Virus record (IMG/VR): IMGVR_UViG_2721755676_000006
Length of the DNA stretch: 36,332 nt
DNA from: a virus
Taxonomy: Duplodnaviria > Heunggongvirae > Uroviricota > Caudoviricetes
Direction: 5' to 3' (one strand)
The notes below the pieces were generated by a model. The model had not been told where the DNA came from. It saw nothing but the letters and a program-made list of their open reading frames with translations, and did no database searches. Numbering within the stretch: the first letter of the stretch is position 1; each line of letters opens with the position of its first letter. This document shows positions 8,830 to 35,091 of the stretch, piece after piece. The position numbers and the translations under genes were made by a program.

Positions 8830-10002
8830 TTACGCGCTGACCTGGCTGGCAAAATTCACCAGGTACTGATCGGTGATGCGCTGGCGCAGCATCAGATTTT
8901 CAAGTGGCGGCACTGGCGTGTAGTCATAGTCGATGGTGAGTTTTCCGGCTTTCAGCGTGTCTTTGTCGTTCACCGACTCATCCAGCCAGCAATCACCACC
9001 AATGAGATAGCCTTGACTGACCAGGCTGCGCATTTTGGCGCGGATACCTTCGATAATGTCGCGGGCCAGCGACGGGTTAAGCGGTTTATCCACCGCCCAC
9101 ATGTGTGCTTCTGCCATCGTGTCCATCAGCACCTGCGCCGTGCGGGTGTAGTTTTCGAAGGCAAAGAGCGGGTCATCACTCAGGCAGCGGGAACCCCAGA
9201 AGCGGAAACCGTCTTTACGCACAAGTGTGGTGACGTCGTTCTGGTTCAGCAGACCTGCATCGGTTGCCGGGTCCTGCAGATCCCAGAACACATCTGCAGA
9301 AATTCCGGTGACACCGTTCACGCCCACGTTGGACAGGCTTTTGTGCCATCCGGTCTGCTCGTCAATTTTGGCGCGCAGACCAAGCGCACGGGCGGTGGCA
9401 TATGCCGTTGCTTCGGCATTCAGCACCGTGTCCCAGCCAGTAAAGTCAGGCCAGATCAGCATCCCTTCGCGCTGGCTGAAGTTTTCACGGTAAGTGATCG
9501 CCTCCTGTACCGTCTTGCAGCCATACGCTGACAGGTAAGCAAATCCACGCAGGCTTTGCGCCACGCTCAGCAACTCAGTAGCTACCGCCTTGGTGTCGTG
9601 GCCTGGCACGCCGAGAATGCGCGGTTTAACGCCGAGCTGAGCCTGTGCAGATAACAGGGCTTTCATACCTGTTTTTTTACCTTCAGCAGTCACTGCGCCG
9701 ATGATATTGGTCGTGGTTTCGTCTTCCGTTTCACCCTGCGGCACACGCACAACAACGGTCACGGGTTTTGCCTGGTCAGCGATGGCATCCAGCGAACGAG
9801 CCAGCGTGCCTGACTCACCCGCTTTACCGCTGGCAGTCAGCACATCAGTGATCAGCACGGGTTTATTAAGAGGAAACATTTTTGCATCGGCATCATCGCC
9901 CGTGCAGACCATACCCACGATGGCGGTGCTCACCGTGGTAATGGATCGGGTGCCTTCGTTGACTTCAACAACGCGCACCCCGTGGTGGTAATCCTGAGCC
10001 AT
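8830..10002 (-). CDS. FI: contractile tail sheath protein
   Basis: 390-aa ORF, P2 FI-like; ATG at 10002 preceded by AGGAGG. Confidence 0.9.
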
Positions 10003-10077
10003 AGTGGCGAACCTCCTGATTGGATTAGGCTTCGCCCTATGTTGAAGTGATTGTGCCTGACAAACAGCTAAGCGCAG

Positions 10078-10097
10078 TTGTACCGTTATTCACACAA
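10078..10097. promoter_or_regulatory. candidate Ogr-dependent late promoter element (TTGT-N12-ACAA dyad) for the FI-FII-E-T-U-D operon
   Basis: TTGTACCGTTATTCACACAA read directly, about 80 bp upstream of the FI start; the same dyad recurs upstream of V and O. Confidence 0.4.
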
Positions 10098-10144
10098 AAT
10101 GACGGTATTTGTCTGCTTGCAGGGATAATCAAAATTATGCTGAT

Positions 10145-10711
10145 TCAGGGGGATTCATTGCTCTTATTTGCCGGAAATTTTCTATAAATGGTAGAAACGC
10201 CTACATCAAAAATCAGTGCAATACGCTGTCTTGATTCTCCGGCCTCGAGTAAACGTCCAATCTGTGCCCACTGTTCAGTGGTCAACTTAGGACGGCGTCC
10301 ACCTACTCTGCCTTTGGCACGAGCTGCAGCCAGCCCTGCCCTGGTACGTTCAACTATCAGTTCGCGTTCCATTTCAGCCAGGGCCCCCATGACATGAAAA
10401 AAGAAACGGCCCATTGGGGTGCTGGTATCAATACTGTCAGTCAGGCTTCGGAAATTCACGCCACGCTGACGCAACTCTTCTATCAGCGTAACAAGATGCC
10501 GCATACTGCGCCCCAACCTGTCTAGCTTCCAGACAACCAGCGTGTCTCCTGCCGATAGTGTCCTGAGCAGTTTTTTCAGCCCCGGTCTGTCGGACTTAGT
10601 GCCACTGATTTTATCCTCAAAAATCCGCTCACATCCCGCGCAGTTCAGTGCATTACGTTGCAAATCGGTGTTCTGGTCATTTGTTGACACGCGTACATAG
10701 CCAATAAGCAT
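10145..10711 (-). CDS. serine DNA invertase (Hin/Gin/Pin/Cin family)
   Basis: 188-aa ORF with N-terminal resolvase catalytic motif (YVRVSTNDQ), C-terminal HTH (GVSTIYRKF); adjacent to the tail-fibre genes. Confidence 0.9.
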   Translation of the reverse strand: MLIGYVRVSTNDQNTDLQRNALNCAGCERIFEDKISGTKSDRPGLKKLLRTLSAGDTLVVWKLDRLGRSMRHLVTLIEELRQRGVNFRSLTDSIDTSTPMGRFFFHVMGALAEMERELIVERTRAGLAAARAKGRVGGRRPKLTTEQWAQIGRLLEAGESRQRIALIFDVGVSTIYRKFPANKSNESP

Positions 10712-10766
10712 GATTATCCCCCTGACTAAAAACCGGGGATGATGCCAGTTAGCTGTTACCTCTGCA

Positions 10767-10792
10767 TTTTCTTAAACGTTGGTTTGGGAGAA
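10767..10792. repeat. invertase crossover site B (26 bp, two 12-bp half-sites around a 2-bp core)
   Basis: TTTTCTTAAACG-TT-GGTTTGGGAGAA; the 14 bp 10779-10792 are an exact inverted copy of 12363-12376. Confidence 0.7.
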
Positions 10793-11122
10793 GCCAGATA
10801 TATCATTCAGCGAGGAGCTAATGCCAATGGTGCATGGATTCGCTGGTCAGATGGTGCAATAGAAGTCTTTGGAACGGGTGGGTCTAATGATAATGGACTG
10901 GCTAAAGTCGTTTACCCAATTGCACTGCCTAAACTTTCACGTTTTATCAGTATCGCGGAAAGAATAAGAACAGATTACGAGAGCACACCTAATAATGTTC
11001 ACGTTTCAATGATCGTGGATGATCAGGTAACAAATACCGGTTTTTATGCCCGCTGCCAGATGTACGACGGCAGACCATCATCAAATGCTTTTTCCTGGAG
11101 GGTTTATTGTGCGCCTGTTTAA
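10781..11122 (+). CDS. alternative tail-fibre C-terminal exon (no own start; fused in-frame to the H N-terminus after inversion)
   Basis: Reading frame runs in-frame through site B (..VGLGEARYI..) for about 109 codons to TAA at 11120-11122; the H frame across site A reads ..TYLGLGEG.. Confidence 0.6.
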   Translation, partial: GLGEARYIIQRGANANGAWIRWSDGAIEVFGTGGSNDNGLAKVVYPIALPKLSRFISIAERIRTDYESTPNNVHVSMIVDDQVTNTGFYARCQMYDGRPSSNAFSWRVYCAPV

Positions 11123-11306
11123 TCCAGTTACTTTGACTGAAGTAATCCCCGGTCTTCATGATGTGACCGGGGCTATTGAATTACCGGAGGACAACTGGTT
11201 TTTTACTATGACAGAAATTCCTCAGGGCATGGAGCTAACAATTAATGAGAAAGGGGAACCAATATTGATTGAGGTTAATCAGTCTCAGGGAAAGCAGGCC
11301 AAATAA
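11109..11306 (+). CDS. short alternative tail-fibre assembly protein candidate (tfa', about 65 aa, GTG start)
   Basis: GTG at 11109 preceded by GGAGG; overlaps the end of the alternative exon by 14 nt and the 3' end of minus-strand tfa by 32 nt; unusually short. Confidence 0.35.
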   Translation: MRLFNPVTLTEVIPGLHDVTGAIELPEDNWFFTMTEIPQGMELTINEKGEPILIEVNQSQGKQAK

Positions 11307-11880
11307 TATCAGGCGCGGTGCTGGTATCTGTTGCCGTCACCGCGTCAATGTAATCCAGCACGGCGTTAAGCCGGGTTGTTTCTGCCTGCATCAGCTTCCG
11401 TCCGGCCTGTAATTTCAGCTGAATCAGACTGATGGAAGCCATTGCAGCATCAATCAGTGACTGACGCTGTGCTTCTGCCGTGTCTACTGCGGCGCTATGC
11501 TGTGCCTCAGTATCGGTCACCCATTTCTCACCATCCCATTTATCGTATGGTGTTAACGGGGCGATAGTTGTGGTATTTTCAGGGTAATCACCCGGAGCTG
11601 TGATTTCTTTTGACTCTCCCGTTTTGGTGCTATAGACGATTTCACCGCGATGGTCTGGCACATATTCCCATGAGTTAAAATTTGCAGAACGACAGATAGC
11701 ATAACCCACCTTATATGTGCCAGGGGCATCTAAACAGGAATATGCAGGAATACCGACACCAATGGCAAGATATTCAGTTGAAGCTGAAATATATTCCTGC
11801 GTCTCACTATCATAGTTATAAACGGTAATATCCCCCGACTTTGTAGCAATAAGCTCACTATTTAATATTGCTTTATCCAT
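11275..11880 (-). CDS. G: tail-fibre assembly protein (Tfa, P2 gpG / lambda Tfa family)
   Basis: 201-aa ORF ending ..DTSTAPDIIWPAFPETD, the conserved Tfa C-terminal signature; start overlaps H stop (TAATG). Confidence 0.85.
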   Translation of the reverse strand: MDKAILNSELIATKSGDITVYNYDSETQEYISASTEYLAIGVGIPAYSCLDAPGTYKVGYAICRSANFNSWEYVPDHRGEIVYSTKTGESKEITAPGDYPENTTTIAPLTPYDKWDGEKWVTDTEAQHSAAVDTAEAQRQSLIDAAMASISLIQLKLQAGRKLMQAETTRLNAVLDYIDAVTATDTSTAPDIIWPAFPETD

Positions 11881-13424
11881 TATGCTGCTCTCACGATATA
11901 GTTAAATGCAATGTTTCGAGGGCGATTCTCTGATGCTGTTGGTACAACCCTGGATGCATCAAAACTGAATCCTGTGTAAGGGGTATTTTTTGTTTCATAT
12001 GTGCCTAGGTTATTATAGATATTTCGCGTAGCTTGAGATGCTAAGGCAAAAGCACCAGTACCAGTCTGTAACCTGAAAGTTGCTGAATCAATGGTGCCTT
12101 TAACTTCATTTATAAAGCCTGTTATATTCCGAATGGTATCTCCCTGTGACGAAAGCAAGCTACGGTTAGTATCAATCCCTCTTCCATCATCCCAGCCACG
12201 AATAAACTCACCGCGTAAATCAGGCAATTTATTTGTCGGGTAAACCTTTGCCAGTTCCGGGTATTCTTCAGCAGAAAAAGCCGCCCCGTTGCATTTCAGC
12301 CAGCCTGTTGGCGGAGTGGCGGAAGGCCACGGAACAGGCACGCCAACGGGTAATGCCGAACCTTCTCCCAAACCAAGGTATGTGAGAAGACCAGCTACAT
12401 CCTTTCCACTCAAATTAGTCAGCGTATTGTCCAGCGGTTGTTTACCTGCCAGCGCATTAAGCATTGTCGTGGCAAAGTTCGGATCATTCCCCAGTGCCGC
12501 CGCCAGTTCGTTCAGTGTATCCAGTGCCGCAGGTGCAGAACCCACCATTCCTGCAATCGCCGATTTCACAAAAGCCGTAGTGGCAATCTGTGTATTATTG
12601 ACCGACTGCGCCGCCGTAGGGGCTGTTGGCGTTCCGGTGAGTGCCGGACTCGACAGCGGCGCTTTCAGTGCCAGCGCATTGTTAATGGTGGTACTGAATT
12701 TCGGATCATTGTTAATGGCTACGGCTATTTCTTTCAGCGTGTCCAGCGTGGCTGGCGCACCATTAATAAGAGCCGTCAGTGCCGCCTGAACAAATGCGGT
12801 GGTCGCAAGCTGCGTGGTATTATTCCCCGCCGCTGGCGTTGGCGCTTTGGGGGTTCCGGTAAACGTTGGACTTTCTTTGGGTGCATACTGTGAATGCGGG
12901 TCCGGCGCGGCAAGATGTTTTGCCATCAGGTCATCCACGTACACCTTCAGCTCCAGTGCCTTGTCATCCACATACTTGCGGGTTGCCAGCACTACAGCAG
13001 GGTCGATTTTCAGGGTGATATTGTCCGTGCTGCTGGTAATCAGCACCATGCGCACGGTCTGGGTACGCCCGCTGCCTTCAGCCAGTTGCGGCTTATAGCT
13101 TTCCGGGCAGTTGCCCACGGCAATCAATGCCCCGGACTCATCAAACAGGCCCACTTCACGTATCCACCAACCGCCCTCGTTTTCAGGGATCACCTGTTCG
13201 GCAATAATCTGGCTGCTGTTCTGCGGGTCGATATAGAGCATATTCAGCGCAGCCCGGCGTTTCTCATTTACCAATGCTGTCTGCTTTGCGTCCGGCGTTG
13301 GCAATGTTCCGCCGCCATCGCCGACCGCCATATGGGTAATTTTTAAAGGCACACCGAGCGCGGCGGCGCTGGCAAGTTTCGCCGCGCCAATATCCGTCAG
13401 CAGGGTATAAAATTTTGTGCTCAT
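11880..13424 (-). CDS. H: tail fibre protein (current orientation)
   Basis: 514-aa ORF with conserved N-terminal attachment region and variable C-terminus; crossover site A lies at about codon 350. Confidence 0.9.
   Translation of the reverse strand: MSTKFYTLLTDIGAAKLASAAALGVPLKITHMAVGDGGGTLPTPDAKQTALVNEKRRAALNMLYIDPQNSSQIIAEQVIPENEGGWWIREVGLFDESGALIAVGNCPESYKPQLAEGSGRTQTVRMVLITSSTDNITLKIDPAVVLATRKYVDDKALELKVYVDDLMAKHLAAPDPHSQYAPKESPTFTGTPKAPTPAAGNNTTQLATTAFVQAALTALINGAPATLDTLKEIAVAINNDPKFSTTINNALALKAPLSSPALTGTPTAPTAAQSVNNTQIATTAFVKSAIAGMVGSAPAALDTLNELAAALGNDPNFATTMLNALAGKQPLDNTLTNLSGKDVAGLLTYLGLGEGSALPVGVPVPWPSATPPTGWLKCNGAAFSAEEYPELAKVYPTNKLPDLRGEFIRGWDDGRGIDTNRSLLSSQGDTIRNITGFINEVKGTIDSATFRLQTGTGAFALASQATRNIYNNLGTYETKNTPYTGFSFDASRVVPTASENRPRNIAFNYIVRAA
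12363..12388. repeat. invertase crossover site A inside gene H
   Basis: TTCTCCCAAACC-AA-GGTATGTGAGAA, an imperfect palindrome; first 14 bp identical to the reverse complement of site B. Confidence 0.7.
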
Positions 13425-24670: not shown

Positions 24671-24697
24671 ATGACACAAAAGTGTCATTTTATTTTA
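24671..24697. terminator. bidirectional hairpin ATGACAC-AAAA-GTGTCAT with flanking T-tract
   Basis: 7-bp inverted repeat between convergent Q and the AT-rich cargo operon; stop codon of the 174-aa ORF lies inside it. Confidence 0.4.
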
Positions 24698-25209
24698 TCA
24701 AGAGGCTTTACCCATTTCTCATGCAAATCCTCTAGCTTAAATGTATTATTTTTTGTCAACCATTTATGAACCAAAGCTATAATTTCTGACCTAGAATAAC
24801 GCTTATAATACAGTTCAGGATTTGCATTATATTGCTCTACTATATGTTGTCCAACTATTGCAAGTTGTCGATGGTCAATAGCGACTAAATCCCTATGCAT
24901 AGGATTTACAGCTTCAAACTTACTTTGCCCCGGATTGTTAGCTATCTGAACACCATTTTCTCTAAGCCAGTCCTCATCCAACCAAATAAGATCAATGATA
25001 TCAGGCGAGGACATAGTTGTAGCTAATGCAACAACGATTTTCTCGGCATCCTCTGTGGTAAAGTCAATTGAATCTGAAGCCCAAACAGAAAGAGTATTAT
25101 TCTTTGTTCGTGTACACCCAGTAATAGCATCGCCTGAAAAATTATCAGGCTGCAATGTTAAGTTAGGTTCCCATTTTGCAATTGATATTTTTCTTAACAA
25201 ATAACTCAT
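24685..25209 (-). CDS. hypothetical protein, third gene of AT-rich cargo operon
   Basis: 174-aa ORF; ATG overlaps the upstream stop (ATGA coupling); no recognisable motif. Confidence 0.6.
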   Translation of the reverse strand: MSYLLRKISIAKWEPNLTLQPDNFSGDAITGCTRTKNNTLSVWASDSIDFTTEDAEKIVVALATTMSSPDIIDLIWLDEDWLRENGVQIANNPGQSKFEAVNPMHRDLVAIDHRQLAIVGQHIVEQYNANPELYYKRYSRSEIIALVHKWLTKNNTFKLEDLHEKWVKPLDKIK

Positions 25210-25865
25210 TGCATGCGTCCCAAATAGTCTATGACAGATTTTTTATAATTATCCAACCAACTTATTCCAAAATCTCTTATTCCATTTAGATATAGTGCAA
25301 GTTGTGGATTGCCCCATCCTTCTGCCGCACGCAGAGCTGCTTCATTTACATATTTATCATCATAAACCGATGCAGCCAATATGATAGCATCAGCCTTATC
25401 ACCAAGAATTTCATATTCTAAGCAAGATGCAACACATATGAAATTTCGTAATTCATACGTATTTTTATTGCGAAAGAGGTCTAACCAAACCCGTTGAAAA
25501 ACCTCCCTAAAAACAAATGGATTTTCTTTGTAAAGGCCTTCAAGATAAAGTTGAGTCTTAGTGATTTCACCTTCAACATAATCTTCTGAAAATAGTAAAC
25601 TTATAGTCATTTTTTGTTTTTTAATGACTATGCTTTCAAAAGAATTATTTGAATCATCAATTTTTTTCAAAAAAAACGAGCCAGCTTGAACTGCTGTTTT
25701 ATTTGAATTTATTCTAATATCGTTAGCTACATAAGAGGATAATTTTTTTGAGTTATCAGATACTGATGAGTTAACCAAAAAACGGTCAAAGTTATTATCA
25801 TTAATAATAGTGTTAACTTCTGACGAAGCCTCAGACAAAATTATATTTCCATAATTTTTATCCAT
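25206..25865 (-). CDS. hypothetical protein, second gene of AT-rich cargo operon
   Basis: 219 aa from ATG at 25865 with GTGAGG RBS (track start 25904 trimmed); Asn/Ser-rich N-terminus, no recognisable motif. Confidence 0.55.
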   Translation of the reverse strand: MDKNYGNIILSEASSEVNTIINDNNFDRFLVNSSVSDNSKKLSSYVANDIRINSNKTAVQAGSFFLKKIDDSNNSFESIVIKKQKMTISLLFSEDYVEGEITKTQLYLEGLYKENPFVFREVFQRVWLDLFRNKNTYELRNFICVASCLEYEILGDKADAIILAASVYDDKYVNEAALRAAEGWGNPQLALYLNGIRDFGISWLDNYKKSVIDYLGRMQ

Positions 25866-25872
25866 GGCAGCC

Positions 25873-26568
25873 TCACTTATTCGTATAACGAGATAATTGC
25901 TCAATTAAATTGGCATTATTTTCTTGCAACTCACTAACAATAGAGTTCGCAGAATTAAAATCAAACCGAAGCGAATTATTTTCTGCCAATGTATTTGTAT
26001 CCACCTCAAAGTTTATTACTTCTGTTGGATGATTATTATTTACTAATGGAGTCTGAATGAAACAACGACGAACAGTACTCCCACTATTCACACTCTCATT
26101 TAAATTTTTCAAATTGACTCGCTCAACAATACGATTATCCCATTCAAATGGTTCTGCATTACGATGAGTGAATAGCTCTCTGTAAAGCCTGGAGTAATTA
26201 TCCTGACTATCATGATAAAAATATGAATTAATAACTGACAGTCTTGTCGCTTTTTTATTAGGGAATATTGACTGTAAAGACTTCATAATATCTTTAACTT
26301 TATTTATGAACTCTTCACTGGAACCGCCGACTCCATGAAAGACAATAGCCCCCAAGGGAAATTCAACCCGAAAATTTTGGTCAGGCGAAGTCATAATAAC
26401 TATTTGACGCTTTTCCCCTGTTAAAGCATTCAACTCCTGCCCAAACATGGGTAAAAGGGATAACGCAGCCAAATTAGACAACAGCATCGAAAGCACTGGC
26501 GGTGTAGCAGTGACATCAGAATTGTTTGTAAAATATGATGCTTGGTAATTTTGAAATAATAATTCCAT
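25873..26568 (-). CDS. hypothetical protein, first gene of AT-rich cargo operon
   Basis: 231-aa ORF with strong AGGAGGA RBS; soluble, no recognisable catalytic motif. Confidence 0.6.
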   Translation of the reverse strand: MELLFQNYQASYFTNNSDVTATPPVLSMLLSNLAALSLLPMFGQELNALTGEKRQIVIMTSPDQNFRVEFPLGAIVFHGVGGSSEEFINKVKDIMKSLQSIFPNKKATRLSVINSYFYHDSQDNYSRLYRELFTHRNAEPFEWDNRIVERVNLKNLNESVNSGSTVRRCFIQTPLVNNNHPTEVINFEVDTNTLAENNSLRFDFNSANSIVSELQENNANLIEQLSRYTNK

Positions 26569-26723
26569 TTTATCCTCCTGAACAATTCATGCGCCATTTG
26601 GCACGAACAATCATTCTTTCAGTATATTAGATTATCCACACAGCTACTAGTAGCCTAACGAAGAAACGGCATAACTGGTCTACTTCGGAAATCCAACAAC
26701 ATAATGGTACCAGCTTGCGCGCG

Positions 26724-26742
26724 CTCGTATCCCCGCCACGCC
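26724..26742 (-). other. candidate cos cohesive-end sequence (P2/186-like)
   Basis: Minus-strand GGCGTGGCGGGGATACGAG; the first 13 nt match my recollection of the 186/P2 cohesive-end consensus GGCG(T/A)GGCGGGGA. Confidence 0.4.
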
Positions 26743-27013
26743 TGCCCGCTTTATATAGTGGTTTTCATGCACCTGCATGACATAAGCAAAAGCCCGCCAT
26801 ACCTAGCAGGCCCCAACTAGAGCGATCCTTAAACGATCATGCGGATTCATGCAGTATAGACATGCAGTAGTTACGCCAAACCGTGTAGCGAGGCCACCTG
26901 CTAAAAATGTTCACGGAGTAACATTTGATCTCCACTGCAAAAAATGAAACTTTCGCTTTCACCAAATATAACAAGAGGTAATCTTTGGTGTTTTACACAG
27001 CAAACGGTGAGCC

Positions 27014-27595
27014 ATGAAAGTCAACATAAAACAGATTGTTGGAAATTGGGAATTAGGTCTTGCGATGGATAAACACAGCATCCGCAGCATTCCCATTGGT
27101 TACGATGAGTGGGGACATATGCGGTTTGAGACGGAGCGTACTGAGGTAGGCGAATCTCTTTTCCAGCTTAAATACCGTGACGATTGGTCACAAGTTAAGC
27201 CTTTAGCCCAATGCCTAGCAGAGCATGCCTTTCCTCATTTCAGCAATGTCGGGTTTATCGTTCCAATGGCTGCATCTAATCAGCGTGCACGCCAGCCAGT
27301 GACCGAAATAGCTCAGGAACTAGCCAAACTAGTTGGCAAACCATGCTTCGATGACCTCTTGTTGAAAGCCCCCGGCGGGGCATCGCTAAAGAACCTGAAT
27401 ACAAAAGAAGAGAAAATCACGGCGCTGGGTAATTCGTTCTCTGTTAATGACAGTATTGAGAATAATGGCAACTGGAATGTCCTTATCATTGACGACCTCT
27501 ACCATACAGGCGCATCTATGGAGGCTGCTTGTGCTGTGCTAAACGATTATACTAAGGTTAGAAGCATTTATGTTGCAGCTTTGACTTGGAGATAG
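27014..27595 (+). CDS. phosphoribosyltransferase (PRTase)-like protein
   Basis: 193-aa ORF with PRPP-binding-loop-like motif VLIIDDLYHTGASM near the C-terminus; AT-rich. Confidence 0.55.
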   Translation: MKVNIKQIVGNWELGLAMDKHSIRSIPIGYDEWGHMRFETERTEVGESLFQLKYRDDWSQVKPLAQCLAEHAFPHFSNVGFIVPMAASNQRARQPVTEIAQELAKLVGKPCFDDLLLKAPGGASLKNLNTKEEKITALGNSFSVNDSIENNGNWNVLIIDDLYHTGASMEAACAVLNDYTKVRSIYVAALTWR

Positions 27596-27597
27596 TG

Positions 27598-28155
27598 ATG
27601 ACTACGGTATTTGTTGCTGGTTCAATAACCATCAAAAACCTTGACACACTCATCGTGGATCGTCTGAAAAAAATTGTTAACTCGCGTTTTCGTATTGTAG
27701 TTGGTGATGCCAATGGTGTTGATTCATCTGTTCAACGCGTATTGCTAGAACTTGGATGTGAAAAAGCCACAGTATTCAGTAGCTCAGAAAAACCGCGCAA
27801 TAATCTTGGCTCATGGCCTGTACATGTAGTAAGTACTAGCCATGCAGCCGGCACTCGCGCGTTTTTCACTGCGAAAGATCTCAAAATGGCAGAAGAAGCC
27901 GATTATGGATTAATGGTTTGGGATACGAAGAGCACGGGTACTCTGAGTAACGTGATTGAGCTTCTTAAACGTAAAAAATACTCTGTCGTTTTTGTTAATA
28001 AATACAAAAAGTTCTTTATTATCAAATCTCCAGAGCACCTTGACGCTTTGATTAACTGCATGTCACCAGCCTCTTTGGAAAAAGCTGATGAAAAGATCAG
28101 ATTGCGCGAAAAAATCAACCAACTAAAAAACGAGCAAATCCAGATGTTTATGTGA
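27598..28155 (+). CDS. DprA/SLOG-like Rossmann-fold protein
   Basis: 185 aa from ATG at 27598 with GGAG RBS; motif RIVVGDANGVDSSVQRVLLELG resembles the DprA/LOG glycine-rich nucleotide-binding loop. Confidence 0.4.
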   Translation: MTTVFVAGSITIKNLDTLIVDRLKKIVNSRFRIVVGDANGVDSSVQRVLLELGCEKATVFSSSEKPRNNLGSWPVHVVSTSHAAGTRAFFTAKDLKMAEEADYGLMVWDTKSTGTLSNVIELLKRKKYSVVFVNKYKKFFIIKSPEHLDALINCMSPASLEKADEKIRLREKINQLKNEQIQMFM

Positions 28156-28244: not shown

Positions 28245-28478
28245 TTAATGCAGCCAGCTGTCGTCTTCCCACACCTTCTGCATAATTTTCATCACTTGTT
28301 TTCTTTCTTCGTCCAGTTGCAGTCCGGTCAGTTCCACACCGTTAGAGCTACCTTTTCGGATACGAATTACCGTTTTGGGATACAGGGGGCGCAGATTGCG
28401 GTAAAGCTCGGATTCAAGGGCGTCCAGGGTAGACTGGCTAATCTTCTGCTCTTTATCGATCATTATTTCAATGCGCAT
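28245..28478 (-). CDS. dinI: DinI-family protein
   Basis: 77 aa from ATG at 28478 with GAGGTGA RBS (MRIEIMIDK...VWEDDSWLH); size and acidic C-terminus as in DinI. Confidence 0.65.
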   Translation of the reverse strand: MRIEIMIDKEQKISQSTLDALESELYRNLRPLYPKTVIRIRKGSSNGVELTGLQLDEERKQVMKIMQKVWEDDSWLH

Positions 28479-28488
28479 AAAAGTCACC

Positions 28489-28677
28489 TCAACTGATGAC
28501 ATCCATTGAGCGGTTGTATTCGTGAGTTCTGATTTTTGCCATGAGTTCATCAGTCAATTCAGAAACCCACTGCAGGGCCAGCCCCTTCTCTTCATCACTA
28601 CACTCACTAGCCGCTACAAGCTTAAGAAAAAAATCAATGCGCTGGAGCTTCAAAGACTCCAAAAAATAGTCCTGCAT
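28489..28677 (-). CDS. small hypothetical protein (possible Tum-like antirepressor N-terminal module)
   Basis: 62-aa ORF directly downstream of a LexA box and upstream of the DinI-like ORF, in a different frame. Confidence 0.4.
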   Translation of the reverse strand: MQDYFLESLKLQRIDFFLKLVAASECSDEEKGLALQWVSELTDELMAKIRTHEYNRSMDVIS

Positions 28678-33965: not shown

Positions 33966-34169
33966 TTAAGCAGACAAAGCATCAACAGTCAGAGCAGCCA
34001 TGTTAATCATTACCTTTTCACGTTTTTTGTCTTTACGAAGACGATGACGAGGTAGTCGGCCATCAGCCAACATGTCGTTAATCGTATCAATAGAAAGGCC
34101 AGTCAGTTCGCTATAACGTTCGATTGTGACATGTGGTGTATTCAGAGTAATTGAAATGTTAGGTGTCAT
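33966..34169 (-). CDS. apl: Apl/Cox-like excisionase and lytic-promoter regulator
   Basis: 67-aa basic ORF with HTH ([18 protein letters not shown]); first gene of the lytic operon, divergent from cI. Confidence 0.65.
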
Positions 34170-34258
34170 AAGGCAACATTCCTTCTAGATATGGCTTGTG
34201 GCGAGCCGTTGTTTGTCGTGATTAGTAGTAAAGGCTCCAAAAGAACACTTCTGGTTCA

Positions 34259-34287
34259 ACTTTAAGATCGCTTTTGGAATCTGTCAA
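34259..34287 (-). promoter_or_regulatory. candidate lytic promoter (pR-like): -35 TTGACA, 17-bp spacer, -10 TAAAGT
   Basis: Minus-strand TTGACA at 34282-34287 and TAAAGT at 34259-34264, read directly in the cI-apl intergenic region. Confidence 0.35.
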
Positions 34288-34314
34288 CGAATTTTGGATT
34301 TCTTTGGAGGACTT

Positions 34315-34884
34315 GTGGATTTCAATAGCGGCGGTAAGAAAGCCATAGAACGTTTAGTTGAAGCATATGGGTTCGGTACCCGTCAGGCTCTATGTGATCA
34401 TTTAGGTGTTTCTAAGAGCACCATGGCAACGCGCTATATGCGTGATATTTTTCCAGCAGATTGGGTAATCCAGTGCGCCCTTGAAACGGGCACCTCGCTT
34501 AATTGGCTAACAACAGGGCATGGTTCAAAGCAAGCATCAGCAAATACAAATACTATAGAAGTAGAAAAATATTTATTGTCTGATGGAGCATTGCAGAAAG
34601 ACGGTTTTTATATTTTTGATAAGGGATTTCTACCCTCTACGTTTAAAAAACCTTTTGTCATCACAGATAACAATTCTGAATTTATTTGTGATAAAGAATT
34701 TGATGATATACGTGATGGTAAATGGGTAATAAGTATTGATGGCGAAATAACGATCCGTGACATTACTCGTTTACCCGGTGGAAGAATCTTCGTCGAGGGT
34801 GGAAACAGAGCCTTCGAATGCAAGATAGAAGACATTGAAATAATTGGTAAAATTATAAGTTTAACAGTCAAGTATGTTAAATAG
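34315..34884 (+). CDS. cI: CI-like immunity repressor (186 type)
   Basis: GTG at 34315 preceded by GGAGG (track start 34294 is TTG); N-terminal HTH (..RQALCDHLGVSKSTMATRYMR..) plus C-terminal domain; about 190 aa. Confidence 0.65.
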   Translation: MDFNSGGKKAIERLVEAYGFGTRQALCDHLGVSKSTMATRYMRDIFPADWVIQCALETGTSLNWLTTGHGSKQASANTNTIEVEKYLLSDGALQKDGFYIFDKGFLPSTFKKPFVITDNNSEFICDKEFDDIRDGKWVISIDGEITIRDITRLPGGRIFVEGGNRAFECKIEDIEIIGKIISLTVKYVK

Positions 34885-34899
34885 TACCGGGAGGAAACT

Positions 34900-35091
34900 A
34901 TGCTTGGTAAGGTATTTTTTGTGGTTTTGTCATGTTCTTTGTTATTAAACCCACTAACTACCTATGCTAGAAATTATCCCTGCTCAGGGAAAAAGGGAGG
35001 TGTTTCTCACTGTACCTCAGATGGCAAATTCGTTTGCAATGATGGAACTATTAGTAAATCCAAAAAAATCTGTACTAAAAACTCACGATAA
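34900..35091 (+). CDS. small secreted Cys-rich peptide (moron candidate)
   Basis: 63-aa ORF with strong GGGAGG RBS, N-terminal signal peptide (cleavage likely after TYA) and a Lys-rich mature peptide with 4 Cys. Confidence 0.5.

Follow-up and report, generated by a model that had tools for sequence, protein, structure and literature searches.

The closest described relatives of the gene pair analyzed here are ShosTA and PsyrTA/RqlHI, systems in which a phosphoribosyltransferase (PRTase) is accompanied by a partner of SLOG or DprA-like fold. Rousset et al. 2022 showed that a 'DprA + PRTase' system taken from the P2 hotspot protects against T7 and lambda (PMC9122126); this is ShosTA, in which the gene for a 357-aa DprA-family protein precedes that for a 424-aa HAD-PRTase. 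The toxicity of ShosT is lost in a D331A/D332A mutant (PMC11961720, PMC12961424), its pyrophosphatase (PPase) domain is nearly dispensable (PMC11961720), and R139 and R234 of ShosA are essential for antitoxin function (PMC12961424). In RqlHI, toxicity of RqlH requires an aspartate in the pocket for phosphoribosyl pyrophosphate (PRPP), and RqlI, a DprA- and molybdenum cofactor (MoCo) carrier-like protein with a helix-turn-helix (HTH) that is encoded second, physically binds RqlH (PMC4670107). The ShosT/PsyrT clade of PRTases has been reported to include the effectors of type III retrons, OpnC of Ophion and the PRTase of NADR (bioRxiv 10.1101/2025.09.30.679545), which are also paired with a second, modulating component, although their partners are a reverse transcriptase (RT) with a non-coding RNA, a radical SAM protein with a PHP protein, and NADAR, respectively. 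The Q–A locus of P2, a cos-proximal site that carries old and tin in P2 itself, is an experimentally supported anti-phage hotspot (PMC9122126). Here, we analyze two adjacent genes (gene 1 and gene 2, encoding protein 1 and protein 2) at this locus in a P2-like Escherichia coli prophage, the 36,332-nt IMG/VR record IMGVR_UViG_2721755676_000006 (the window, meaning the whole stretch analyzed), which has 100% identity to strain 210205630 (NZ_CP015912.1). The two genes are one conserved, horizontally mobile unit, and they are probably a PRTase–SLOG toxin–antitoxin-type abortive-infection or anti-phage (and addiction) cassette of the ShosTA and PsyrTA/RqlHI class; toxicity of protein 1, its neutralization by protein 2 and an anti-phage phenotype are inferred. 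The pair is a compact, widespread variant within a class already described and does not amount to a new kind of system; at ~1.1 kb and with two single-domain proteins it would be the minimal form of that class, and despite its wide spread it is annotated merely as a 'ComF family protein' and a 'hypothetical protein'.

The present pair appears in Rousset et al. 2022 as a catalogue entry only (Table S5B, system #98; PMC9122126), the proteins of which equal those of the window save for one residue in protein 2. An original prediction, made by a model from the letters of the window, had mentioned a report of a DprA-like plus PRTase anti-phage pair from P2-like hotspots; that paper exists, but the system validated in it is the large ShosTA and not the pair described here. 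The PRTase systems of the DefensePredictor (NADR) and modularity-network (Ophion) papers were also considered as the same system and rejected as different ones.

A phosphoribosyltransferase and a SLOG-fold partner

Protein 1 belongs to the type-I PRTases, is of the ComF/ShosT type and retains an intact PRPP loop. In this loop (VLIIDDLYHTGAS, DD-x3-TG), which aligns to that of ShosT (ILVIDDFCTEGNA) and to the APRT loop, D160, T165 and G166 are invariant and D161 is at least 90% conserved (25 sequences). The PADLOC model of ShosT (PDLC03962) matches residues 60–190 at E 1.3e-8 (model positions 81–208 of 237), and that of PsyrT matches at E 1.5e-7, solely through its PRTase part (538–681 of 689). 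Both models match all 25 aligned relatives (best ~1e-10; 5.7e-11 for ShosT), and the retron PRTase_III-A model gives a weak match in just one of these. The AlphaFold2 (AF2) model (pLDDT 90.7) has the PRTase alpha/beta fold, for which Foldseek returns Helicobacter pylori ComF as the best match (7p0h, E 1.4e-5, TMq 0.60), followed by PRTase-like proteins, APRT and ShosT (8zvb/8zvd, E ~4e-5); there are 148 PDB matches at E<=1e-3, and among the 50 listed nearly all are PRTases or have the PRTase fold. The curated profiles give lower scores, with 15.6 bits against a cut-off of 26.3 for Pfam Pribosyltran (PF00156), where the PRPP loop alone is matched, and 23.8 bits against 233.55 for NCBIfam ComF (TIGR00201). 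More distant relatives reach 20.7–27.8 bits on PF00156, one of them (P0490) above the cut-off, and sequence and profile searches of the PDB (phmmer, hmmsearch) recover only the PRPP loop of protein 1, at E ~0.04. Since the curated Pfam and NCBIfam matches are all sub-threshold, the assignment rests on the PADLOC profiles, the motifs and the predicted fold.

With 193 aa, protein 1 comprises the catalytic core only. ShosT has 424 aa with an N-terminal HAD/PPase domain (residues 1–164; PMC11961720) and PsyrT/RqlH is a RecQ-like helicase–PRTase, whereas protein 1 has neither the 164-aa HAD/pyrophosphatase domain nor a helicase domain. The ComF zinc finger is absent as well, there being no cysteine before residue 66. 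A mapping of ShosT K280, R285 and H240 onto protein 1 was dropped, as the alignment is unreliable outside the PRPP loop.

Protein 2 is placed securely in the SLOG (DprA/LOG/YpsA) superfamily by its predicted structure (pLDDT 94.5), in which a Rossmann core (residues ~1–144) is followed by a C-terminal three-helix tail (145–185). The 185-aa protein opens directly with Rossmann strand beta-1 (residues 3–8), whereas ShosA (~330–357 aa) has an N-terminal SAM domain that is needed for stability. Foldseek ranks ShosA (8zva) first at E 1.3e-5, and after it come H. pylori and Streptococcus pneumoniae DprA, MoCo carrier protein, LOG, the SLOG domain of ThsA (7uxs/8btp) and YpsA; ShosTA, for which the structures are 8zva, 8zvb and 8zvd, was reportedly also described by Millman 2022. 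In the glycine-rich loop V35, G36, D37, A38, G40 and D42 are invariant among homologs, and ShosA and protein 2 have in common a GxAxGxD loop and a YP(K/R)N motif. In a motif-anchored alignment, the RecA-contact residues K200 (YPKN) and R206 of ShosA fall on invariant R67 (PRNN) and invariant W73, respectively. Protein 2 is nevertheless a relative and not a member of the ShosA/DprA family. PF02481 (DNA_processg_A) is present in 120 of 120 listed ShosA relatives and in 0 of 120 listed protein 2 relatives, the PADLOC PsyrA model matches protein 2 marginally (E 0.018–0.019), and weak matches among 27 relatives are to PsyrA in 13 (best 6.8e-4) and to ShosA in 8. Sequence and profile searches of the PDB gave nothing for protein 2.

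The protein is basic (isoelectric point 9.5; family median 9.35), with invariant lysines and arginines other than those that bind single-stranded DNA (ssDNA) in ShosA. Among its roughly 50 invariant positions are many polar residues (D37, D42, R67, N68, N69, R87, T91, K93, D94, D102, D109, S112, T115, N118 and E121), which fall in the canonical ligand crevice of SLOG proteins, where the Rossmann strands have their C-terminal ends. A glycine-rich loop, an acidic or polar crevice and links to conflict systems and variable effectors are also found in the SLOG families of ThsA, LOG, YpsA and MoCo carrier proteins. Protein 2 differs from them in having no SIR2, TIR or transmembrane effector, in having a PRTase as its obligate partner and in not reproducing the LOG signature PGGxGTxxE, the corresponding stretch being KSTGTLSNVIE with the glutamate 6 and not 3 residues after the threonine.

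The original prediction had called the first open reading frame (ORF) PRTase-like with a PRPP loop and the second a DprA/SLOG-like Rossmann protein, and both calls stand. Each ORF is a real gene, with 741 and 1,813 homolog clusters, respectively, at E<=1e-3 and top matches that are 57–93% identical; an exhaustive profile search for the SLOG partner gave 2,066 clusters (50% identity) at the same threshold. Structure prediction, which had been proposed as a check, returned the two expected folds, and the proposed profile searches had a split outcome, with Pribosyltran, DprA and ComF all sub-threshold and the PADLOC ShosT and PsyrT models clearly matched.

Conservation, mobility and domain variants of the pair

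As read from the sequence, gene 2 is translationally coupled to gene 1: the stop codon of gene 1 (TAG, 27593–27595) is followed after 2 nt by the ATG of gene 2, and a GGAG ribosome-binding site lies within the last gene 1 codons. A TTG at 27586, given as the gene 2 start in a mechanical ORF list, was rejected in favor of this ATG because all homologs open with MTT(V/I)F there and the PGAP start is identical. The arrangement is conserved. The comparison covered all fetched loci whose protein 2 homolog is 52% identical or more, drawn from E. coli, a Klebsiella plasmid, a betaproteobacterial metagenome-assembled genome, Neisseria dentiae and 23 IMG/VR contigs. Each of the 33 loci that could be assessed has a protein 1 homolog as its next upstream neighbor in the same orientation, with 6–16 nt between the two alignments. 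The PRTase neighbor is absent at five distant SLOG relatives (25–36% identity).

Within Proteobacteria the pair is widely spread, being carried by prophages, plasmids and islands, and relatives of the two proteins also occur outside this group. Two P2-type variable loci host it, Q–A with the window allele and gpD–ogr with an allele whose proteins are 57% and 63% identical. Complete E. coli genomes with the pair number 16 + 8 of 5,426, the 8 being those with the gpD–ogr allele, to which many draft contigs are to be added. That allele sits in a P2-like element next to ihfA/pheST (E. coli chromosomes L004–L007, 6411–7558; also L023 and L024). Elsewhere, one island carries the pair together with transposase, integrase and RT genes, and in Neisseria it is a bare insertion between housekeeping genes. 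Plasmid records number 101 for relatives of protein 2 (55 of them conjugative) and 67 for relatives of protein 1; one example lies beside a type II restriction–modification (RM) system. On plasmid pM308-NDM1 (NZ_AP018832.1; L043, 263–2471) an IS3-family element truncates the PRTase, of which residues ~60–193 are left, and the SLOG gene is intact and identical to the copies in undisrupted plasmids; two sister plasmids are alike. A harmful PRTase would lead one to expect this pattern, which however concerns a single lineage.

Of the best 150 SLOG representatives, about one-quarter exceed 230 aa. Among the long ones that were checked, P0363, P0368 and P0378 have an extra C-terminal Xre-type HTH (HTH_37/HTH_3), P0437 and P0453 have an extra C-terminal 'addiction module antidote' HTH (dnstrm_HI1420), P0487 carries HEPN_AbiU2 and P0465 carries Abi_alpha, the latter two fusions being genuine under the standard code. 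In every readable contig (L045, L046, L049 and L050) a full-length protein 1 homolog (32–50% identity) lies directly upstream of the SLOG variant, with a 4-nt overlap at three loci and a 3-nt gap at L049; L046 adjoins a SocAB toxin–antitoxin locus. When the second component of such a pair bears an HTH, this is the hallmark of an autoregulating antitoxin. The presence of C-terminal HTH, HEPN_AbiU2 or Abi_alpha domains on a SLOG protein downstream of a PRTase speaks for the PRTase as toxin and the SLOG protein as antitoxin or sensor.

In a further group, NADAR or DUF4326 is fused N-terminally to the same SLOG core (P0399 in L047/L048; P0497; P0414), with IS21 genes nearby and no adjacent PRTase. 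As NADAR enzymes undo the ADP-ribosylation of bases, this hints that the SLOG domain may deal with ribosylated bases or nucleotides. An apparent PRTase–SLOG fusion did not hold up as a 'Rosetta-stone' protein. P0490 (L044, 1491–2705) was downgraded to weak evidence because a TGA codon lies in frame precisely where the two domains join: the fusion requires TGA to be read as tryptophan, the adjoining RepA_N gene also requires TGA as a sense codon and the contig has a GC content of 27.6%, so that P0490 is either a genuine fusion in a code-4 host or a gene-calling artefact. The middle of P0500 is garbled, probably by a frameshift.

Function of the pair and competing explanations

The assignment to a toxin–antitoxin-type defense class draws on generic features of such modules (a coupled, mobile two-gene operon and, in relatives, an HTH-capable second component), on a defense-type context (the P2 Q–A hotspot, neighboring RM, RT or SocAB genes in other loci, and Abi-effector fusions) and on the likeness to described systems. 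With ShosTA the pair has in common that it is a two-gene cassette of a PRTase and a SLOG/DprA-fold protein in the same cos-proximal P2 hotspot, with a match to the ShosT model, the catalytic DD of the PRPP loop and ShosA as the best Foldseek match of protein 2. With PsyrTA/RqlHI it shares a toxin gene first and a SLOG-type partner second in one operon (rqlH–rqlI order; PMC4670107), the match of protein 1 to the C-terminal PRTase of PsyrT and the weak PsyrA matches of protein 2 and its relatives. A C-terminal HTH is found in RqlI and in some protein 2 relatives, though not in protein 2 of the window. In its organization (toxin first, SLOG second, optional HTH) the pair is closer to PsyrTA/RqlHI than to the ShosTA of P2.

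Several observations weigh against this assignment. On protein 2, DNA_processg_A reaches only E 0.21, its 11.2 bits falling short of the 29.6 required, and the PADLOC ShosA model gives no match at E<=1, for which reason the pair is probably also under-counted in defense censuses. Family-level homology between protein 2 and ShosA was rejected: hhalign gives E 0.03–0.05 against the ShosA sequence and a 30-member ShosA alignment (0.052 for the ShosA family), and covers just the VGDANGVD/SGLAYGID loop and the PRNN/YPKN motif. By a motif-anchored alignment of moderate confidence, the ssDNA arginines R139, R234 and R261 of ShosA (R52, R143 and R170 of H. pylori DprA) are replaced by I/M at position 10, A92 (with K93 adjacent) and I/L/V/M at position 120, that is, I/M, A and I. 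The gene order in P2, ShosA and then ShosT, is reversed in the present pair. The isolated PRTase domain of RqlH is not toxic alone (PMC4670107), and a 193-aa PRTase therefore need not be toxic. Nor does residence in the hotspot guarantee defense, since only 3 of the 8 P2 systems cloned by Rousset et al., to which the pair does not belong, were active (PMC9122126). For the SLOG–HEPN and SLOG–Abi_alpha fusions, a sensor–effector logic is no worse a fit than that of an antitoxin. Among deposited phage genomes no protein 2 homolog, and so no pair, was found, the literature search found no paper testing the pair, and a promoter and terminator scan found no sigma-70 consensus promoter upstream of gene 1, with match counts not above shuffled expectation.

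If the pair does act as a toxin–antitoxin-type cassette, protein 1 would be the effector, binding PRPP via its intact DD-TG loop and transferring phosphoribose to an acceptor, with damage to nucleotide pools or DNA replication as for ShosT and RqlH. Protein 2, a basic SLOG-fold protein made in fixed ratio through translational coupling, would keep the PRTase harmless until it is itself removed or overridden, on infection or when the element is lost, and the PRTase is unleashed. Neutralization by direct binding or sensing, as for RqlI, seems more likely than a ShosA-type route through ssDNA and RecA, which is less likely for protein 2 because the ssDNA arginines of ShosA are missing. The PPase and SAM domains are absent as well, and these and the arginines are the basis of the current ShosTA model, so that the pair offers a clean test of what is essential to the class, namely which acceptor receives the phosphoribose and how a bare SLOG domain neutralizes or senses; the HTH, HEPN_AbiU2 and Abi_alpha variants are ready comparative material. 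A bolder and rather unlikely idea is that protein 2 recognizes or reverses the product of the PRTase itself (a phosphoribosylated base or nucleotide), which would make the two a minimal writer–eraser or writer–reader pair analogous to DarT–DarG/NADAR with PRPP in place of NAD+. In that event the HEPN, Abi_alpha and HTH variants would show the SLOG core to be a ligand-gated switch, and the mechanism of ShosTA/PsyrTA would need re-reading too.

A first rival explanation, itself quite improbable, is an enzymatic antagonism in the style of DarT–DarG/NADAR, in which the PRTase phosphoribosylates a nucleobase, free or in DNA or RNA, the SLOG protein, as a hydrolase or binder instead of a mediator of DNA repair, removes or sequesters the adduct, and phage tips the balance. 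LOG-family SLOG enzymes cleave N-glycosidic bonds of nucleoside 5'-monophosphates, and the many polar residues among the invariant positions in the ligand crevice of protein 2 exceed the needs of a scaffold; however, the LOG signature is not reproduced, and ShosA and DprA stand above LOG in the Foldseek ranking. The absence of the canonical DprA ssDNA arginines is in keeping with an enzymatic role, as is the fusion of NADAR to the same SLOG family (P0399, P0497), NADAR being a family of N-glycosidases that remove ADP-ribose modifications from bases and serve as antitoxin to DarT (PMC11543638, PMC11125620). A PRTase + NADAR pair ('NADR') is also listed in the DefensePredictor supplementary tables, and in a proposal by Russell & Mulvey the RqlH PRTase modifies a nucleotide that RqlI then 'resolves' (PMC4670107). 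Against this, the NADAR–SLOG fusions are without an adjacent PRTase, there is no known substrate, and the HTH-bearing relatives resemble classical binding antitoxins.

Signaling of the Thoeris kind, in which the PRTase of an infected cell makes a (phospho)ribosyl nucleotide signal from PRPP and the SLOG protein is its receptor, fits the data less well than a toxin–antitoxin cassette and is very unlikely. The effector would be the HEPN or Abi_alpha domain in some relatives and, in the window, the short helical tail, perhaps by driving oligomerization. The SLOG domain of ThsA, which is among the structural matches of protein 2, is a sensor of cyclic ADP-ribose isomers, and the SLOG–HEPN_AbiU2 and SLOG–Abi_alpha fusions keep the upstream PRTase with its 4-nt overlap. 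Iyer et al. 2017 likewise proposed that PRTases of mobile elements produce or sense a nucleotide (PMC5512222). Yet neither the SLOG protein of the window nor most of its relatives carry an effector domain, in both studied relatives (ShosT and RqlH) it is the PRTase itself that is toxic and the SLOG partner that protects, the HTH and antidote fusions fit an antitoxin and not an effector, and the IS3-disrupted PRTase beside an intact SLOG gene fits a harmful PRTase.

A non-immune role, either as a plain addiction or stability module or as ComF plus DprA-like ssDNA handling or nucleotide salvage that helps the prophage or plasmid in recombination or replication restart, also fits less well and is very improbable: ComFC and DprA do act jointly on incoming ssDNA in transformation, protein 1 has ComF as its best fold match and RefSeq name, protein 2 has the DprA Rossmann fold, conjugative plasmids, on which toxin–antitoxin modules act as stabilizers, often carry the pair, and defense was seen in just those 3 of 8 newly cloned hotspot systems, but protein 1 has no four-cysteine zinc finger, scores far below the ComF cut-off and clusters with ShosT/PsyrT and not with housekeeping PRTases, protein 2 has none of the SAM domain, winged helix and ssDNA arginines of DprA, there is no competence gene neighborhood, the spread on mobile elements is rare and sporadic (24 of 5,426 complete E. 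coli genomes), the pair is placed in variable hotspots beside RM, RT and other toxin–antitoxin genes, and its Abi-type effector fusions are typical of conflict systems.

Locus and neighboring features

The gene order of the window matches the P2 Q–A locus. Terminase and portal (gpQ) genes on the plus strand are followed by three AT-rich hypothetical genes on the minus strand, a 446-nt intergenic region with a cos-like sequence, the pair on the plus strand and then, on the minus strand, a DinI-like gene, a small ORF and the gpA replication endonuclease gene (Table 1). The original prediction was right to place the pair between the cos-like site and the replication genes, where P2 has old and tin, and to see a GGAG-coupled second ORF; the AT-richness that it ascribed to the module is true but moderate, with a GC content of 0.457 (gene 1) and 0.400 (gene 2) compared with 0.56 for the structural genes.

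Table 1 Coordinates of the gene pair and of neighboring features in the window
Feature	Position	Strand	Details
Gene 1	27014-27595	+	193 aa; RefSeq WP_024219116.1, annotated 'ComF family protein'
PRPP-binding loop	27479-27520	+	VLIIDDLYHTGASM; residues 156-169; D160/D161 = ShosT D331/D332
Gene 2 ribosome-binding site	27588-27591	+	GGAG; within last gene 1 codons, 6 nt before ATG
Gene 2	27598-28155	+	185 aa; RefSeq WP_024219117.1, annotated 'hypothetical protein'
Glycine-rich loop	27700-27723	+	VGDANGVD; residues 35-42; equivalent to DprA/ShosA SGLAYGID
Imperfect inverted repeat	26960-26990		CACCAAATATAAC/GTAATCTTTGGTG; 13-nt arms, 85% complementary; 24 nt upstream of gene 1 ATG
Cos-like packaging sequence	~26716-26750		GCGCGCTCGTATCCCCGCCACGCCTGCCCGC; cargo-locus boundary, outside module
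Three overlapping ORFs	24685-26568	-	between portal gene and cos; GC 0.34; 231, ~219-232 and 174 aa
DinI-like gene, mechanical ORF	28245-28550	-	101 aa; Pfam DinI match at residues 38-100
DinI-like gene, RefSeq	28245-28478	-	77 aa

The inverted repeat upstream of gene 1 is a weak candidate for an operator and may be due to chance; in two other alleles, a small palindrome (CTAAAG…CTTTTAG) lies at a comparable position. The cos-like sequence, which differs little from that near cos in the P2-hotspot clones of Rousset Table S2, divides the hotspot in two: the three ORFs are cargo on the portal side, and the PRTase–SLOG pair is cargo on the gpA side.

The three ORFs match only PHROGs of unknown function (phrog_19817, 21208 and 10743), plus sub-threshold Pfam HTH_70 and YgjP-like. 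They are an independent cargo module, because the pair is found without them in other prophages and a related trio (WP_021823668 in common) stands alone in Rousset Table S5A, and they are a candidate defense or accessory system. Their identification with the validated '3 HP' system of Rousset et al. was rejected, as pFR109 encodes much larger, unrelated proteins. Away from the pair, the composition profile of the prophage has two more dips in GC content, at 10001–12500 (0.42–0.48) and 34001–35000 (0.35–0.43).

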